64,000 bases of DNA, from NCBI GenBank assembly GCA_963762115.1, contig CAVXJH010000007.1:64001-128000 (forward strand), read 5' to 3'. Source of the DNA: Candidatus Babeliales bacterium. Lineage in GTDB: Bacteria; Babelota; Babeliae; Babelales; JANWKD01. The first letter of the stretch is position 1; every line of letters starts with the position of its first letter. The notes below the pieces were generated by a model. The model worked only from the letters and a program-made list of their open reading frames with translations. It was not told the origin of the DNA and did no database searches. Of the stretch, positions 3,045-47,270 are shown piece after piece. The position numbers and the translations under genes were made by a program.

Positions 3045-3602
3045 TTAAACATTTTTAATTTTTTTAAACGGCATATTAAATCCTTTAAGCAGCTCCAGCG
3101 CATGTTCATCTTTACGCGCAGTAGTATGTATAGAAACATTAAGTCCGTATACGGTTTCACCTACACCCCTGTCTGCTTCAGGAAAAATTGACCATTCTTT
3201 TAACCCTATATTATAATTTCCATTACCATCTAACTTTAGCGGCAAACCCTGAAAGTCTCTAACATTAGGTAAGGCAAGATTGATAAGCTTATCAAGAAAA
3301 TTATACATATTTTCTTTTCTAAGCGTTACCATCACACCAAGAGGCATACCTTCACGAATTTTAAATCCAGCAATTGATTTTTTTGCCAACGTTCTCACTG
3401 GTGCTTGACCTGCAATACGTCCAATTGTATCAACTACAGTTTTTAAAATCTTACTATCATTTACAGCTTCTTTTACGCCCACATTAAGAACAATTTTAGA
3501 AATTGAAGGAACTTGCATAATATTATCAATTCCCAATTTTGTTTTTAATTCTGAACGTATTTTTTTATCATATAATTCTTTTAAGCGAGACTTCGGCATC
3601 AA
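3045..3602 (-). CDS. rplE: 50S ribosomal protein L5
   Basis: [30 protein letters not shown]. Confidence 0.97.
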
Positions 3603-3619
3603 ACATCCTTAAAAACAAG

Positions 3620-3931
3620 TCAAAAAATCTCTTTACAACGATTACAAACACGAGCTTTATTTTCATCAGCGGTAACTATAAAGTTAACACGTGATGGTTT
3701 ATTACAAGCTTTACATACAGGCATTACATTTGAAATATCAATATAACACTCTTTTTCTTTTATAGCTGATACTTCGCCCTGCTTACGAGCCTTGGTATGA
3801 CGTTTTACCATAACAAGACCTTGAATCATTACTTTACCTTTTTTAGGCAAAATATCAATTATTCGACCTTGCTTGTTTTTATCTTTGCCAGAAGTGATGG
3901 CAACGAGGTCATCTTTTTTTACATTCATCAT
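3620..3931 (-). CDS. rplX: 50S ribosomal protein L24
   Basis: KOW-like ITSGKDKNKQG, IDISNV; position after rplN. Confidence 0.96.
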   Translation of the reverse strand: MMNVKKDDLVAITSGKDKNKQGRIIDILPKKGKVMIQGLVMVKRHTKARKQGEVSAIKEKECYIDISNVMPVCKACNKPSRVNFIVTADENKARVCNRCKEIF

Positions 3932-33024: not shown

Positions 33025-33930
33025 ATGAAGAAGTTTCTCTATCTTAGCTTAACCGGCTTAATGGTTTTAAGCACAACAACACGTTGCATGGAACAAATTA
33101 TTAAAGCCGATGAAGAAGCACAAAAAGATGGAAGTGTGCAAACAATAATCTTAGAATCAGAAAATGCATTAAAAGTACAGGGACCACAATTACCAGCAAA
33201 AAAAGAAGTGATTCAAGCGTTCTTGGAAGCCTATGTTGTTGTCTCAACGATGGGCCGTTATGGCGTTGCATCATCAGAACCATTTGCAATAATGAAGGAA
33301 TCATACGCCACCGTTAAGGCCATTAACAAAGGTGATAAAGAAAAAACACGATTAGAATTATTTGATGGCTATTGCAGTGCTGATGAAGAATATTATGAAA
33401 AAGGACTTGACGACGAAGAAAAAACCGCTCAAAAAATTAAAGCTATTGACTCACTCGTAGCATTAAGATATCAATCAAAACTTAATGACAATCAAAAAAA
33501 ACATGCCGCATTAATGCAAAGAAAAGAAGAACTAACTAAAACTATTAAAGAATTACTCAATAAAAAAACCGCTATTCAAGAAAAATTGCGTGAAAAAGAA
33601 GAAGAAAAATCGCTTCTTGAAAAGGTTAACGCCATGCATCATAACTCTAAAGAACAAGAAAACTCCTTACTTCGTTCGCGCAAAGAAACATTAACTGAAG
33701 AAATAAAAGCTATTGATGAACGCATTGCAAAACACAAAGAAGAATCTAATGCTTTACTTGAAGGTGATGTAATGCAAAGCGTGGTTGCAGATGCTATAAA
33801 AGACCATTCCGATGTTGAAGCTGGTCTTTTAGAAAAAAAAGCAGAATTACAAGCAAAATTCGATAAAATTAATGCTGTTATTGAAAAGCTAGAAATACCA
33901 AAGACTGGTTGGTTTGGTAATTGGCTATAA
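33025..33930 (+). CDS. Secreted coiled-coil protein
   Basis: AAGGAG RBS; signal ...TTRC|ME; long heptad-rich C-half; ends TGWFGNWL. Confidence 0.8.
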   Translation: MKKFLYLSLTGLMVLSTTTRCMEQIIKADEEAQKDGSVQTIILESENALKVQGPQLPAKKEVIQAFLEAYVVVSTMGRYGVASSEPFAIMKESYATVKAINKGDKEKTRLELFDGYCSADEEYYEKGLDDEEKTAQKIKAIDSLVALRYQSKLNDNQKKHAALMQRKEELTKTIKELLNKKTAIQEKLREKEEEKSLLEKVNAMHHNSKEQENSLLRSRKETLTEEIKAIDERIAKHKEESNALLEGDVMQSVVADAIKDHSDVEAGLLEKKAELQAKFDKINAVIEKLEIPKTGWFGNWL

Positions 33931-34095: not shown

Positions 34096-35445
34096 ATGAA
34101 GATTTTATATTCCACCCTTGCATTATTATTATATATAAACGCGCCATTATACTGCATGGAAGAAGAACAAAGGCAACTCGGCTTTCCATCTTCTAGTAAT
34201 AATAATGATGCGGATATTTCTGAGTTCTTCTTAGCTGATGCTGCAGAACAAAGCGGCGTCCCTTTAAAACGAACGCATACTAAAGGCCCTTCAACAATTT
34301 TTATGGAACGTGTTGACACACACAATCATGAAGAAGCAAGCGACATAACAACAGGCTTTTTTGCAATGCCAACAAAAGAGGCGGGAAGCGATGAATACGC
34401 ACAAGAAGACGTAGATAATGATCCAACTGAAAAAAAATCTACAATATTGATAACAAAAATATTTGAAGAACATGTAATTCCACAATCCAACGAAAATAAC
34501 AATAATCAAGGACCACAAATGACTCCCTTGATTCCACAATTATTTGATAAAATCGAAGATCATAAACAAAAAAGCAATTTTTCTTGGACAAAGATACTTG
34601 AAATATTTAAAGCTGATGATGAACGACAAAAAGAATTACTCGGTGATAATAATTTATCAGAAGTTATTTCCAGGTCACAGAACGAAACTTTAAAAGTATA
34701 TTATTCTAGCCTTGCACATCTTGGAGAATTGACAGAACTTTTCTGGATCTTAAAAAGCAAATTATCAAAAATGCCTATTGAGGAAAAGAAACTGTCGGTT
34801 GAATTTGAGCATAAAAACTACATATATGCGGGCATAATTAAAAGATGCAGTAACAATAAAGAAGAAGCAAAAGCACTCTTATTAGGAGTCGCTGATTATG
34901 AAAGTGACGAAGAAAAAATTATTGATGGCGATCTAGAAAATGATGAACCTGGTGTATATCGTTTATCAAAAAACATTTTGACCTATGCATTACCAGCTTT
35001 GACAAAACGAATAAATGAAAATCAAGCATCTGTTGATAGTTCTATACAAGAAAAAGAGCTCATAGATAATAAAATAGCTGTATTAGAAAAGCAAAAACAA
35101 GAAGTTTTAGCAAAATTAAATCAAGAACTCACCAATAAACGACAATTAAAACAAGCAGAATTGATCATTAAACAAGAAAGAGAAACCCAAAGAGAATATT
35201 TATTAAGAAAACAAGCAACATTAAAAAAAGCTATAGTTTTTCTAGAAGATAAAATTAATGATTTATCACATCAAAGCGAAGAAGCAGTACTACAACAAGC
35301 AAATGACAAAAAAATATTATTAAACAAACAAAAAAAAGCAACCGAAGAACAACTGAGCAAAACAAAATTAATATTAGCTGATCTTGAAAAAAATTTAAAA
35401 AATTTTGATACTCCAACTGGCTACAAGCTTTGGAGAGGAAAATAA
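34096..35445 (+). CDS. Secreted coiled-coil protein with disordered acidic N-region
   Basis: AAGGAG RBS; signal ...PLYC|ME; coiled-coil C-half; ends TGYKLWRGK. Confidence 0.8.
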   Translation: MKILYSTLALLLYINAPLYCMEEEQRQLGFPSSSNNNDADISEFFLADAAEQSGVPLKRTHTKGPSTIFMERVDTHNHEEASDITTGFFAMPTKEAGSDEYAQEDVDNDPTEKKSTILITKIFEEHVIPQSNENNNNQGPQMTPLIPQLFDKIEDHKQKSNFSWTKILEIFKADDERQKELLGDNNLSEVISRSQNETLKVYYSSLAHLGELTELFWILKSKLSKMPIEEKKLSVEFEHKNYIYAGIIKRCSNNKEEAKALLLGVADYESDEEKIIDGDLENDEPGVYRLSKNILTYALPALTKRINENQASVDSSIQEKELIDNKIAVLEKQKQEVLAKLNQELTNKRQLKQAELIIKQERETQREYLLRKQATLKKAIVFLEDKINDLSHQSEEAVLQQANDKKILLNKQKKATEEQLSKTKLILADLEKNLKNFDTPTGYKLWRGK

Positions 35446-37845: not shown

Positions 37846-38340
37846 TTATTTTGGCATGCGCTTAACGACAAATGCGCGTAACATCCACGCCATTTTTTCT
37901 TGTGTTTCAATAAGATCCGTTAAAAAATTACTCGTACCAGCATCAGCATATTTATCAAGTGTTATACCAATATCTTTACGAATTTGCTTAATAATTGCTT
38001 CATGATCACGTAATAATTGATGCAACATTTCATGAGCACTCTTGCCCTCACCAAAAAGAGACTCATCAAGAATAGTTAATTTATGAAACTCTTTTAATGA
38101 GGCAATTGTTTTCCCGCCAACAGTACGTGCGCGTTCAGCGACATCATCAATGATATCAAAAAGCTCTTCATATTGCTTTTTAAAAAATAAATGAAGTGGA
38201 TAAAAATCCTCACCAACAACATTCCAATGATAATTTAATGTTTTAGTATATAAAACATATTCATTAGCTAAAAGTTTGTTCAAAATTTCAGCAACATTGC
38301 TACAATTTTTTTCTGTTATGCCAATATCTGCTTTTTCCAT
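37846..38340 (-). CDS. dps: Dps / DNA-binding ferritin-like protein
   Basis: NYHWNVVG.F..LH..F, DDVAERAR, EKMAWMLR. Confidence 0.93.
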   Translation of the reverse strand: MEKADIGITEKNCSNVAEILNKLLANEYVLYTKTLNYHWNVVGEDFYPLHLFFKKQYEELFDIIDDVAERARTVGGKTIASLKEFHKLTILDESLFGEGKSAHEMLHQLLRDHEAIIKQIRKDIGITLDKYADAGTSNFLTDLIETQEKMAWMLRAFVVKRMPK

Positions 38341-38623
38341 TTTTTCCCTTTACATAAAAAAATTTTATATAAGTTTTTTACCGCAACAAATAACATTTTA
38401 TCAGCAAATATAATTACATTGCAACAAGTTAACAACACCCGATAAAACATTGTATAGTTTTTACTCTTTGCTAAAATACCTCAGCGATGAATAATATCAT
38501 TTCATAATTATGTATAAACACCTTCAATCACGTTTATTGACGATTCAAATTGAAAATAATATAATTAAAAAACACAAATCAAGACATTAAATAAATTAAA
38601 ATCAACTAACAGATGGAATTCTT

Positions 38624-39430
38624 ATGAAAAAACTCTTAAAATTTATTTTTATATCACTCTTAATGATGCATGCACCTTTATGGGGAATGGAAGCCCAATC
38701 TAAAAAAACTAATGAATTAATGCAAGAATGTTATTGTGGTAGTATAGTTGCACAACATAGATTACGCTATCACATTGATGGGTACCACGCTATTGTTATA
38801 AAGGGGAAAAAAGAATATCTATGCCCTAAAGAAGGTTGTCAATTTAAACCCTTTTCTAAAACAACTCACGTCATTCATCATTTGATGGTAGAACACAAAT
38901 TTTTTGATTTTACAAAACCTGGAAATCATGAACCTGAATCAAAACAAGAGGCACAAGCTAAAACAGATGAATCAGTCTTCAGCAGCGCTGATTTATGGAG
39001 TGCTGAAAACAATAACGAAGCAACCAACATTAAAAAATATTGCCAATGCGGAAAAAGATGGCCTCAAGATAAAAGAGAGGCACAACTTCAGCACATTAGA
39101 ACACATCATTGTGAGATGACTAATTTTGTAAAAACATTTATCTGTCCAAACTGCTCTTTTCCAGGTAAAACGGCAGAAGTTGTATTAGAACATAATAAAA
39201 TCCATACTACCAATAAAAATCAAACTCCTCCCCCTTCTAAAAAAATCAAAAAAAAAGAATCAAAAAAATCTCAAAGGTTAATAACCATTTTGCCAAATGC
39301 ACTCCAGCAAACTTCAGTCCCTTTTGAAAATGTTACAAACCTACCAAATGACAATGATCAGAAACTCTTAGAGATTTTTTTAACCTATAATTCAGGAGAG
39401 CTTGAAGAATTATTTCCAATGATAAACTGA
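38624..39430 (+). CDS. Secreted protein with four C2H2-like zinc fingers and an NLS-like basic patch
   Basis: Signal ...PLWG|ME; CPKEGC..HLMVEH, CPNC-x12-HNKIH, two CxC...H..H units; PPPSKKIKKK. Confidence 0.75.
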   Translation: MKKLLKFIFISLLMMHAPLWGMEAQSKKTNELMQECYCGSIVAQHRLRYHIDGYHAIVIKGKKEYLCPKEGCQFKPFSKTTHVIHHLMVEHKFFDFTKPGNHEPESKQEAQAKTDESVFSSADLWSAENNNEATNIKKYCQCGKRWPQDKREAQLQHIRTHHCEMTNFVKTFICPNCSFPGKTAEVVLEHNKIHTTNKNQTPPPSKKIKKKESKKSQRLITILPNALQQTSVPFENVTNLPNDNDQKLLEIFLTYNSGELEELFPMIN

Positions 39431-39445
39431 TCAATTTAAATTAAA

Positions 39446-40069
39446 TTATTTGAATCGATCAGGCTGTATGATGCCACCAGAAATAATCAAAGACATTGCT
39501 TCCTGACGACTTAAATCGATGGAAATAATATCTTTTTCAGCAATCTGAATGAGAAAACCACTTGTTGGATTGGGAGTTGTGGGAATAAAAACATAGAAAA
39601 ACTTTTCTTGCGTGAACGGCAAAATTTGTTGAGGAATTTCACTCGTTAAAAAACCAATGCTATAACTAACTGCCGTTGGAAAAGGAACAACAACAACTTT
39701 TTTGAATGCTAATTCACTTTGCGCACTAAACGCATTAACCAATTGCTTAAATCCGCCGTACACTTGCTTCATAAGGGGAATTTTGAAGAAAATCTTCTCA
39801 AGAAAATGTATTATTGGTTCTAAAAATAAAAGTCTTATAAGGAGACCGAAAAAAAATATCGCGCCTATTACAAAAAAAAGTTGTGAACCAGGAATAGACC
39901 TTAAATACGCAGGTTCCCATTTATAGACTGGTTCAAGCCATGAATTAATAAGACGAAATGAGAAAATAAACAAGGCAATTGTTAAGGTAAATGGCAATAA
40001 AGTAAAAAGCCCGCTTAAAAAAAGTGTTTGAATATCATGCCATATTTTATAAAAATATTTTTTTTTCAT
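39446..40069 (-). CDS. DUF502-family membrane protein
   Basis: FLSGL..LLP..LT, KIPLMKQVY, IGFLT, VFIPTTPNPTSGF, AMSLIISGG. Confidence 0.85.
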   Translation of the reverse strand: MKKKYFYKIWHDIQTLFLSGLFTLLPFTLTIALFIFSFRLINSWLEPVYKWEPAYLRSIPGSQLFFVIGAIFFFGLLIRLLFLEPIIHFLEKIFFKIPLMKQVYGGFKQLVNAFSAQSELAFKKVVVVPFPTAVSYSIGFLTSEIPQQILPFTQEKFFYVFIPTTPNPTSGFLIQIAEKDIISIDLSRQEAMSLIISGGIIQPDRFK

Positions 40070-44965: not shown

Positions 44966-46717
44966 ATGTTAAACAAAAAACTACTTTTATCAATTATTTT
45001 TTCATGCCTCACTTATTCAGGCATGCAGGCTATGGAGGCTTTGTCATTGGAAGAACCTAAAGAAAATGAAGCACACGTTCTTAACGATAATGATATAGTC
45101 ACTATTCAATTAACCTACAATTTTAAACAAGAAAAAGAATATGATAAAACAATGTATCAACCTAAAGATAATGACGATTATAACATCAATTACGAGGTAA
45201 CAGTACCATATAAAATTATTAAAACATGTTCGTTATTACGACGTGATATCTCTCATGAAAATACCATTATCACCATTCCTGCCACCGATATTTCTATAGA
45301 AATGTTTAAATTTATTTTAGATTTGCTCAATATATATTCCGATGATCAATTAACAAATGAGATCAAAATACAAAAAATACACGAATTAATAAAAAACAAT
45401 GAAGAAAAACTTTTTCAATTACTTGATGCAGCTAATTATTTGAATTGTGAACCAATCTATAATGCAGCGAGTCATATTATGACACAAAAACTTGAAAGCT
45501 TAATTTTTGAAAAAAATAATTTGGCAGAAGCTCTTGCATTAGCAAAATACATCAAAAAGAAAACCAATCATTATTACAAAATATTTGAATATTTATGTGA
45601 TACTTCAAAATATAAAACTGAAATCAAAGCAATTGTTAAATCAATACAAGCGTTGGAAGAAACTGAAATTATTAATTCAATATGCTTTTCTCCAGATAAT
45701 AAAACACTTGCTTATACACGTATCCCAAACGATACCGCCATAAAACTCTGGAACATTAGCAATGATGAACACTCATCAATGCCAAAAATAGATAATTTTA
45801 ACATCGGGTCAATCAATTTTTCTCATGATGGCACAAAAATCGCTTCAGGTTCTTGGAATGGCAACATAAAAATATGCGATGTAAATTCAGAAACCTGTTT
45901 AATCGATCTACAAGGACATACAACTTGGGTAACTTCAATATCTTTTTCTCATGATGATACTAAACTTGCATCTGCTTCTCATGATAACACCATAAAAGTA
46001 TGGGATGCTAAAACGGGTGAATGCATATCTACTTTCCAAGAAAATGATCGAGTTCTCTCAGCCTGTTTTTCACCTAATAGCAAAATTCTTGCTTCAGCTT
46101 CCAAAAATTTTATAAAATTATGGGAAGTTTCATCGGGGAAACAGCTACAAATCCTTAATGGTCATAACAATGAAATTAGGAACATTTGTTTTTCCCCAGA
46201 CGGCACAACAATTGCTTCATCTTCTCTAGATGCAACGGTAAAAATATGGGATACATCTTCTGGAAATCTTTTAAAAACTTTAGAGGGCCACAAAAGATCC
46301 ATACCTTCTGTTTGCTTTTCTCCTGATGGCACAATAATTGCTTCCGGTTCTTTCGATAGAACAATAAAAATATGGGATGCGTCTTCTGGAAAATACTTAC
46401 AAACGATCAAAGATACCGGCCAAGTTCGCGCCATGTGCTTTTCTTCTGATGGCAAACTTGCTAAAGGATGTAATGAAAAAAATATACAGATTTTTACTTT
46501 TCATGATCTCAAGAAAGAGTTCAATCTTTCTACTTTACTATTGCTTGAATATTTGATGTATCATAAGGAACATAATTCATTACCAGCATTATCACAACTT
46601 GATCCATCCATGCAAGGATTATTCTTGTTGTTACCAGAAGCATTCCAAAAAATGTTTACCGATATGCCTGCAACTAACGATGTTCCCACAACAAAGTCTA
46701 ACTGCTTAGTTAGTTAA
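44966..46717 (+). CDS. Secreted Skp1/BTB-POZ-like + 7x WD40 protein with a C-terminal CaaX box
   Basis: AGGAG RBS; signal ...GMQA|ME; LFQLLDAANYLN; seven WD40 repeats (e.g. GH..V.S..FS.D...LASAS.D.TIKVWD); ends CLVS. Confidence 0.85.
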   Translation: MLNKKLLLSIIFSCLTYSGMQAMEALSLEEPKENEAHVLNDNDIVTIQLTYNFKQEKEYDKTMYQPKDNDDYNINYEVTVPYKIIKTCSLLRRDISHENTIITIPATDISIEMFKFILDLLNIYSDDQLTNEIKIQKIHELIKNNEEKLFQLLDAANYLNCEPIYNAASHIMTQKLESLIFEKNNLAEALALAKYIKKKTNHYYKIFEYLCDTSKYKTEIKAIVKSIQALEETEIINSICFSPDNKTLAYTRIPNDTAIKLWNISNDEHSSMPKIDNFNIGSINFSHDGTKIASGSWNGNIKICDVNSETCLIDLQGHTTWVTSISFSHDDTKLASASHDNTIKVWDAKTGECISTFQENDRVLSACFSPNSKILASASKNFIKLWEVSSGKQLQILNGHNNEIRNICFSPDGTTIASSSLDATVKIWDTSSGNLLKTLEGHKRSIPSVCFSPDGTIIASGSFDRTIKIWDASSGKYLQTIKDTGQVRAMCFSSDGKLAKGCNEKNIQIFTFHDLKKEFNLSTLLLLEYLMYHKEHNSLPALSQLDPSMQGLFLLLPEAFQKMFTDMPATNDVPTTKSNCLVS

Positions 46718-46928: not shown

Positions 46929-47270
46929 TTAAAAATTTAGTTGTTCTTGTAACTTTAACCAATACTGTTCAAGTTTTTGATACATTACATGCTCTTTGTC
47001 TTTACGATTGCCAAACGATGTGCATTGAGTCGTTTCATTGTTAATAGGATAACTCATCCAACCAGAATACGATACAGATCCCTTTTCTTTATCTACACAT
47101 TTACTAACAACAAGTTCTGCTCTTTTTTCTTCATTTGTTTGAGTAAGAACTTCACGCACACATAATGTATCTTCATCAGTTTCTTTAGTTACCTTACCAC
47201 CACATTCCATGGCTGATGCCGAAAAAAATAAACCTAAACTAATACTCAACATTGCACTATATAGTTTCAT
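46929..47270 (-). CDS. Small secreted protein, paralog family member 1
   Basis: MKLYSAMLSISLGLFFSASA|MECGGKVTK..E.LTQ..YSG..KLE..W..L. Confidence 0.8.
   Translation of the reverse strand: MKLYSAMLSISLGLFFSASAMECGGKVTKETDEDTLCVREVLTQTNEEKRAELVVSKCVDKEKGSVSYSGWMSYPINNETTQCTSFGNRKDKEHVMYQKLEQYWLKLQEQLNF

Follow-up and report, generated by a model that had tools for sequence, protein, structure and literature searches.

A four-finger C2H2 protein with a signal peptide from a Babeliales bacterium: a divergent member of an order-wide family and a candidate nuclear effector

Arrays of Krüppel-type C2H2 zinc fingers (PF00096) are known from eukaryotic proteins such as Zif268, CTCF, ZFP568 and PRDM9, and wide diversity of their fingerprints is described as particular to animals among eukaryotes (PMC5588721). 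Here, we analysed P0001, a predicted exported C2H2 protein encoded in a 64,000-nucleotide stretch of a Babeliales (Babelota/TM6) genome, hereafter the window. P0001 resembles the eukaryotic arrays in its Cys2His2 ligands, predicted beta-beta-alpha fingers and profile matches, and many of its relatives carry TGEKP linkers. It differs in being bacterial and bearing a signal peptide, and in its CxC-type first fingers, 11-residue linkers, predicted packed pairs and score below the Pfam cut-off. Bacterial C2H2-type zinc binding is also found in Ros/MucR, single-finger cytoplasmic regulators of the bacterium's own genes; P0001 has four fingers and a signal peptide, and Ros/MucR was absent among its Pfam matches at E up to 0.1.

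The closest working model for such a protein comes from a fungus. MoHTR1 and MoHTR2 of Magnaporthe oryzae are described as combining a signal peptide with a C2H2 finger, entering the nucleus and reprogramming host transcription (PMC12488382). The likeness is one of description, and these effectors differ from P0001 in being fungal and small (MoHTR2 has 110 aa and one finger domain), in having rice, a plant, as host and in lacking arrays. Among bacterial nucleomodulins, the TAL effectors (AvrBs3/PthA) are described as mimics of host activators that combine nuclear signals with modular DNA-binding repeats (PMC7819608); they differ from the P0001 family in their type III injection and TALE repeat fold.

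Many PF00096 domains have been counted in the host-associated Endozoicomonadaceae, with 45 in Ca. Endonucleibacter bathymodioli and up to 205 per genome, and Kistimonas is reported as enriched in zinc-finger proteins (PMC12491435); a "zinc-finger double domain" has likewise been listed as eukaryote-like (PMC9743535). These bacteria are Gammaproteobacteria of animals, and the relevant passages give counts only, alongside Ros/MucR, without analysis of export, linkers or mechanism (PMC12491435, PMC9743535). For Babelota, a search of the literature (mostly open full texts) found no paper on C2H2 proteins. The term "C2H2" is absent from the main texts of PMC4776705, PMC6561590, PMC4378268, PMC12644861 and PMC12172432, from nine supplements of PMC4378268 and from the nucleomodulin review PMC7819608. 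The eukaryote-like proteins named in the relevant sections of the Babelota literature are ankyrin, WD40, F-box, LRR, TPR and ubiquitin-related proteins, C2H2 not being among them.

The locus and its conserved features

The P0001 gene (38624..39430, + strand) encodes 268 aa, as given by the open reading frame call and by two full-length orthologues from other assemblies, P0007 (74% identity) and P0003 (41%). A putative sigma-70-like promoter, TTGACG-17-TATAAT (38537..38565, +), lies 58 nt upstream of the start codon and matches 11 of 12 consensus letters, a score found within 200 nt upstream of 28 of the genome's 1076 ORFs; none scores 12/12. The slot is marked by two separate flanking genes on the minus strand, a dps/ferritin-like gene (37846..38340; 87% identical in locus L008) and a DUF502 gene (39446..40069; 84% identical in L008). 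A terminator-like site was sought at the gene and not found, and an Rfam search around it returned one tRNA, far from the gene, and nothing else. Elsewhere in the window, a gene at 44966-46717 (+) encodes a signal-peptide WD40 protein of 583 aa, a eukaryote-like candidate effector, at a place corresponding to that of a four-finger gene in L008. Two further signal-peptide proteins (33025-33930 and 34096-35445, +) have long charged, coiled-coil-like halves and match no Pfam family over the cut-off.

Invariant among the three full-length sequences are all 16 zinc ligands, the motif KKIKK and a tail core of L249, F252, L253, G258 and LEELFP (260-265). Identity to the distant orthologue P0003 is 52% in the signal peptide, 46% and 42% in the two finger pairs, 47% in the basic patch and 57% in the tail; since these values exceed those of the spacers (23% and 15%), each of the named features is, as judged from the alignment, under selection. 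Outside its orthologues, the protein is hard to recover from a single sequence: among 313 candidates the one match was P0001 itself, a representative library gave five matches, two of them the orthologues, and 0 of 40 relative genomes matched. Metagenome contigs yielded 596 pattern matches, none confirmed as a P0001-type locus, and a profile (A2) matched 11 of 261 genomes, two of which had supplied the profile's own sequences.

The initial annotation had described a signal peptide followed by Met-Glu, a basic patch fitting the nuclear localisation consensus and an acidic/hydrophobic tail, and all three were borne out. The predicted Sec signal peptide (residues 1-21; 38624..38686, +) ends in L-W-G ahead of Met-Glu and is 100% and 52% identical in the orthologues. 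It was called by our own n/h/c-region rule rather than SignalP, with one false call in 35 housekeeping ORFs; the N-terminus satisfies it with a basic n-region, a hydrophobic h-region and a small residue at -1. The basic patch PPPSKKIKKKESKK (residues 202-215; 39227..39268, +), which holds the invariant KKIKK and whose type is enriched across the family, is a candidate monopartite nuclear localisation signal. The tail (residues 245-265; 39356..39418, +), for which helices are predicted at low confidence, is a candidate cofactor-docking or activation motif; its identity to the orthologues is 81% and 57%, compared with 74% and 15% in the stretch preceding it. A variable, net-acidic spacer (residues 92-139; 38897..39040, +) separates the finger pairs, with 50% and 23% identity to the orthologues and pLDDT <50 for residues 97-136.

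Four C2H2 motifs had also been claimed, and the spacings stood with one correction. Finger 1 is of the CxC type (C36-x-C38-x11-H50-x4-H55; 38729..38788, +), and finger 2 (C67-x4-C72-x13-H86-x4-H91; 38822..38896, +) has a predicted beta-hairpin before it and is predicted to pack on finger 1. Finger 3, again of the CxC type, reads C140-x-C142-x14-H157-x4-H162 (39041..39109, +); its last ligand is H162 rather than H161 (x3), because only H162 is kept in P0007 and P0003. Finger 4 (F172-x-C174-x2-C177-x12-H190-x3-H194; 39143..39205, +), which had been called canonical, is so in spacing only: Gly occupies the place of the core Phe, Val replaces the core Leu, and the recognition helix is acidic, its positions 2 and 6 being Glu in each of the three full-length sequences. 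The helices of fingers 1-3 carry H, R, K and T. Among 100,000 shuffles of P0001, none had four C2H2 motifs and one had three. The linkers within each pair are 11 residues long and have no TGEKP, and in each of the three orthologues both pairs carry a net positive charge of +3 to +5. The two pairs are 29% identical over 52 aa (E 0.002), a comparison by which pair 2 arose from pair 1 by an old duplication.

The finger family across the order and its rapid change

P0001 is one member of a large order-wide family and thus part of something more general than the single gene first read. In its own genome, 20 of 1351 ORFs have at least two C2H2 motifs, 19 of them with a signal peptide, and an additional overlapped gene brings the number to 21. 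Fifteen of the 21 lie in one tandem array of signal-peptide finger genes (L001:2544-15608; G000:C6:348543-361607), in which 12 close paralogues have three fingers each, mostly with a KR-rich patch. The two closest paralogues of P0001 itself stand in tandem at L002:1448-2660 and 3337-3816 (G000:C6), near a RING-finger gene. At L005:621-1220, a signal-peptide protein with a His/Arg/Gly-rich basic middle adjoins a four-finger gene.

Across the order, PF00096 matches were found in 59 of 151 genomes, 30 of them over the cut-off, compared with 1 of 14 controls; the remaining 92 gave none, which makes the distribution of the family patchy. From 40 regions around the best matches (the best 150 of 472) we collected 113 finger proteins in 32 genomes, a selected set and not a census. 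Of the 103 that have an upstream stop, 87 begin with a signal peptide by our rule; the corresponding rate is 422/847 for soluble ORFs and 1/35 for housekeeping ORFs. By eye, several of the 16 proteins missed by the signal rule look like signals, and one that passes (595 aa, G159) looks false.

TGEKP-type linkers occur in 46 of the collected proteins, from 16 genomes, with a signal peptide in 37 of the 40 stop-bounded ones; exact HTGEKP was counted 62 times and HTGERP 25 times among the relatives of P0001. No protein in P0001's own genome has such a linker. The 185 distinct TGEKP-linked fingers have Phe at -3 in 82% and Leu at 4 in 92%, and Q/T/R at -1, S/G at 2, H/N/S/D at 3 and R/T/K at 6, a make-up of contact residues that we take to be that of DNA-binding Krüppel fingers; they comprise 165 different fingerprints. 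These canonical genes are intron-free and stand beside xerC, murD, pyrG, efp/nusB/murI, sufS and pepA. Their best database matches, among the best 7950 candidates scored, were animal zinc-finger proteins (about 40-58%) and one bacterial entry. We claim no donor lineage, as such matches reflect the make-up of the database.

The CxC pair unit of P0001 recurs as well, up to seven times (strict pattern) in a 1209-aa protein of genome G159. L073 (G159) and L067 and L068 (G084) encode proteins that reach some 1200 aa and carry 15-17 finger motifs, those of G159 being built from the CxC pair unit. In genome G035, tandem genes (L017 and L077) encode five to eight Cx4C fingers with non-TGEKP linkers that look TFIIIA-like by eye and are possible RNA binders. 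Many finger loci (L054-L093) reach contig ends; repeats probably break assemblies, so finger counts per genome are likely too low.

The slot of P0001 changes quickly. In L008, the neighbours uvrD, dps, DUF502, glmM and trpS are 76-87% identical to those of the P0001 genome, yet a tblastn search with P0001 found no match there. The L008 slot, in unchanged orientation, holds three signal-type finger genes, two of them with P0001's CxC pair unit. The slot is occupied by unrelated short genes in three genomes belonging to the same taxonomic family and in a more distant one. Downstream of glmM-DUF502 (L094, L095, L096, L097), each relative has different short genes, mostly of the signal-peptide type, as at a site of exported-gene turnover.

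A close strain of the organism was present in a freshwater sediment run (X1); runs X2-X5, with small shares, were left out of account for habitat, and no RNA run was among those listed. Among the differences listed between P0001 and the X1 contig, 7 of 7 (38613-39102) change a residue; for the neighbours dps and DUF502 the figure is 3 of 29 (Fisher p 1e-5, rising to 9e-5 should an unlisted eighth difference be silent). This comparison covers eight differences in that contig, one of them unlisted, and excludes four entries at an altered 3' end, while 53 further entries lie outside the list; the contigs may come from different strains. A ratio of 7:1 is not above neutral expectation, and the contrast shows either much weaker constraint or positive selection on P0001. 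In single contigs, the X1 strain also has a one-base loss in dps (window 38053) and a different 3' end of P0001 (39418-39433).

Within the family, change follows the structure of the finger. For the 12 array paralogues, omega relative to gene-wide silent change is 1.88 at contact positions, 1.31 at other exposed positions and 0.78 in the core, the excess at contact over other exposed positions being not significant (p 0.068). Contact positions vary in array fingers 1 and 3 and are conserved in finger 2 (0.46, against 0.82 at other exposed positions). They equal or exceed other exposed positions in two of the three array finger classes and in nine of ten other genomes, and ligand and core positions are strongly constrained (pN/pS 0.00-0.37). 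The pairwise pN/pS values are uncorrected and mix non-orthologous fingers, so values above 1 are not proof of positive selection.

Fold of the finger pairs and what they may bind

The initial annotation had proposed a C2H2 profile search and a structure prediction as checks on the fingers. By profile, P0001 itself lies below the PF00096 cut-off; its sole Pfam match is C2H2_ASCIZ (E 0.075, below the cut-off), and NCBIfam gave no match at E 1e-8. The related pair units place it better: 13 of 23 match PF00096 at E up to 0.05, and a profile of the six closest units matches eukaryotic C2H2 proteins, with Aart at E 1.6e-15 and 70 other sequences. The structure prediction does give the fingers a C2H2 fold. 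The whole-protein model is confident over the fingers only (pLDDT 66-83), and a model of pair 1, built with the 23 related pair units as alignment, reached pLDDT 91 and pTM 0.74, its two fingers joined via the beta-hairpin. A single finger fits a Kaiso finger at 1.7-1.8 Å over 38 residues (Foldseek E >0.001), fold searches with the whole protein were weak (no Foldseek E <0.001, best Z 3.9), and Atlas matches, to C2H2-type clusters of low recognition at scores of just 0.89-0.90, are a lead only. As far as profiles and models tell, the fingers of P0001 are genuine C2H2 homologues.

P0001 itself is not a Krüppel array, because of its 11-residue linkers, CxC first fingers, predicted packing and the Glu residues of finger 4. 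Both fingers of the DNA-free pair model superpose on the packed pairs of GLI, AEBP2 and Serrate at 3.4-4.5 Å and on DNA-bound tramtrack, Klf4, CTCF and BCL11A at 9-11 Å (no E <0.001). Its best whole-pair matches are GLI/ZIC fingers 1-2, yeast Zap1 zf1-2 and Serrate/ARS2 (rmsd 3.2-4.0 Å over 52-65 residues, plus the profile), which are weak (Z ≤4.4, no Foldseek E <0.001). The tryptophan core that GLI/ZIC and Zap1 finger pairs have is not in place in the P0001 alignment.

These properties bear on an alternative in which P0001 is exported to the host and acts there by binding protein or RNA and reads no DNA sequence; it would serve as a decoy or adaptor that occupies, for instance, importin, a cofactor or a complex for RNA processing. 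The predicted packed pairs with their added beta-hairpin point this way, as do the top hits of a wide structural search with the pair model (Serrate/ARS2 and Zap1 zf1-2, weak at Z 3.4-4.4), which are not classical DNA readers, and the acidic helix of finger 4. The only single stretches to span the whole pair in the six-unit profile search, GLI1 and ZIC3 fingers 1-2, would fit it too, although GLI and ZIC are themselves DNA-binding factors. Fingers with adjacent strands are described as able to mediate dimerisation (PMC12774644). On the other side stand the net basic charge of the pairs, kept in all three orthologues, the arrays of canonical DNA-reading type in relatives from 16 genomes, and the model itself, which is DNA-free and may overstate the packing. 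We regard this alternative as less likely than the main reading, yet as a serious rival to it, and direct DNA reading as less certain for P0001 than for its family.

Export, destination and proposed mechanism

The gene content of the P0001 genome (G000; 1.53 Mb, 34% GC, 7 contigs, 95% complete) comprises three ATP/ADP translocase genes, 38 ankyrin ORFs (by mapping of 112 matches) and type II-like genes, namely two secretins, two GspE/PilB-type ATPases and two of GspF type. A search of this 95% complete genome for the type III export gate and the VirB4 domain (type IV) found neither. The translocases, ankyrins and type II-like genes agree with published accounts, which portray Babelota as parasites of protists that have Sec and type II secretion and encode many signal peptides (PMC4776705, PMC4378268), a signal being reported in 44% of genes (PMC6561590), and membership of an obligately intracellular lineage is supported. 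Ankyrin proteins are regarded as acting on the host (PMC6561590, PMC4378268). Babela is described as growing inside a vacuole (PMC4378268) and, with no type III or type IV hallmark found, the crossing of a vacuole membrane is a point against delivery to the host.

The end of the signal peptide is of a type common in this genome. A small residue followed by Met closes the signal in 233 of 666 signal-type ORFs, and the residue after that Met is Glu in 109 of the 233 (background 5%), followed in frequency by Gln, Asn and Asp. The same end is found in 18 of the 38 ankyrin ORFs; a periplasmic control family, PF00496, was sought for comparison and not found. Within the window, such ends were noted at 33025, 34096, 38624, 44966 and 46929-47270. 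In eukaryotes, NatB acetylates Met-Glu, Met-Asp, Met-Asn and Met-Gln ends, and Plasmodium PEXEL cleavage leaves an acidic end, which the Met-Glu ends recall. Such an end may help to sort or stabilise proteins bound for the host.

What speaks most strongly for a nuclear destination, although a motif count, is the enrichment of basic patches, defined as four K/R in five residues outside the fingers. Of 82 complete finger proteins with a signal, 35 have such a patch where shuffles predict 5.5, an enrichment of about sixfold; with one protein taken per genome, the count is 11 of 30 against 2.1. For the larger set, five of the 87 signal-bearing proteins and those that are open-ended were excluded. 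In the P0001 genome, the controls were 72/299 against 50.8 for other exported proteins and 49/320 against 43.6 for non-exported ones. By the same rule, 47 of the 82 family members have no patch. Acidic-hydrophobic windows are enriched weakly, at 47/82 against 32.4 expected (17/30 against 13.8 with one protein per genome; control 67/100 against 60.3), so that an activation domain is not supported family-wide, although P0001's own tail is conserved.

A second alternative holds that P0001 never reaches the host cytosol or nucleus and is a periplasmic, surface or vacuolar zinc-binding or variable surface protein with an incidental patch. A signal peptide by itself is a poor guide, being present in half of the soluble ORFs. 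The low GC content of the genome goes with frequent lysine-rich patches, as the other exported proteins show, and the search for type III and IV hallmarks found none. We consider it improbable, given that patches rise some six times above shuffles in finger proteins only, that relatives keep TGEKP linkers and a DNA-type helix code, and that the same signal type leads nearly half of the ankyrin proteins. Less probable again is a DNA target in the host outside the nucleus, such as the genomes of co-infecting giant viruses or mitochondrial DNA. Giant viruses and Babelota are described as having protist hosts in common (PMC12644861) and Chromulinavorax as being wrapped by the host mitochondrion (PMC6561590), and fast change would suit any arms race; the enriched motif, on the other hand, is of the nuclear-import type, and direct evidence for viral or mitochondrial DNA as a target was not found. 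That the finger genes are eukaryotic contamination or decaying, unselected remnants, as the animal best matches and the mostly metagenome-assembled genomes with many loci at contig ends might suggest, is largely refuted by intron-free genes with bacterial-type signal peptides beside bacterial genes, by the setting of P0001, flanked by dps and DUF502 on a contig of 160 kb that also carries rpoC, and by constrained ligand and core positions with 16 of 16 ligands kept in the orthologues.

We thus favour, with a probability of about 0.5, the reading of P0001 as a member, though a divergent one, of the large multi-C2H2 signal-peptide family of Babeliales and as an exported effector that enters the protist nucleus as a mimic of a transcription regulator. 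The protein would be exported by Sec, with predicted cleavage before Met-Glu, and would cross the outer membrane by way of the type II-like machinery, no other secretion channel having been found in the genome. Host importin-alpha would then import it through KKIKK, and its finger pairs would engage chromatin. Canonical relatives may read DNA triplets finger by finger; the predicted packed pairs of P0001 would more likely each contact DNA with a single finger or bind to a chromatin protein. The conserved tail could recruit or titrate a host cofactor. Because fingers duplicate and change fast, targets would be readjusted in the course of host-parasite co-evolution. The initial annotation had read the protein as a transcription-factor mimic, and that view keeps the intracellular lineage, the predicted C2H2 fold, the conserved features and the patch enrichment on its side; what fits it less well is the lack of TGEKP, the predicted packed pairs, the acidic finger 4 and the lack of a clear family-wide excess of activation windows.

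For the order as a whole, we tentatively propose, at somewhat short of an even chance, an arsenal of Krüppel-type transcription factors for export, numbering up to 21 genes or 17 fingers per protein, that grows by tandem duplication, diversifies its contact residues as in animals and rewrites protist transcription. It would be a second modular DNA-targeting bacterial effector system beside the TAL effectors, with Sec and type II-like secretion as its delivery route and a Met-Glu end for sorting.

To the question of how Babelota, a phylum of obligate protist parasites with no type III or type IV system found, control their hosts, an exported finger family offers a directly testable route. Its canonical members are suited to the zinc-finger recognition code and to matching against protist promoters, which could also hint at hosts. 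If the proposal is true, bacteria would have in this family an equivalent of the MoHTR effectors of fungi; it would parallel the TAL effectors while using another fold, and would show fingers diversifying rapidly in organisms other than animals.
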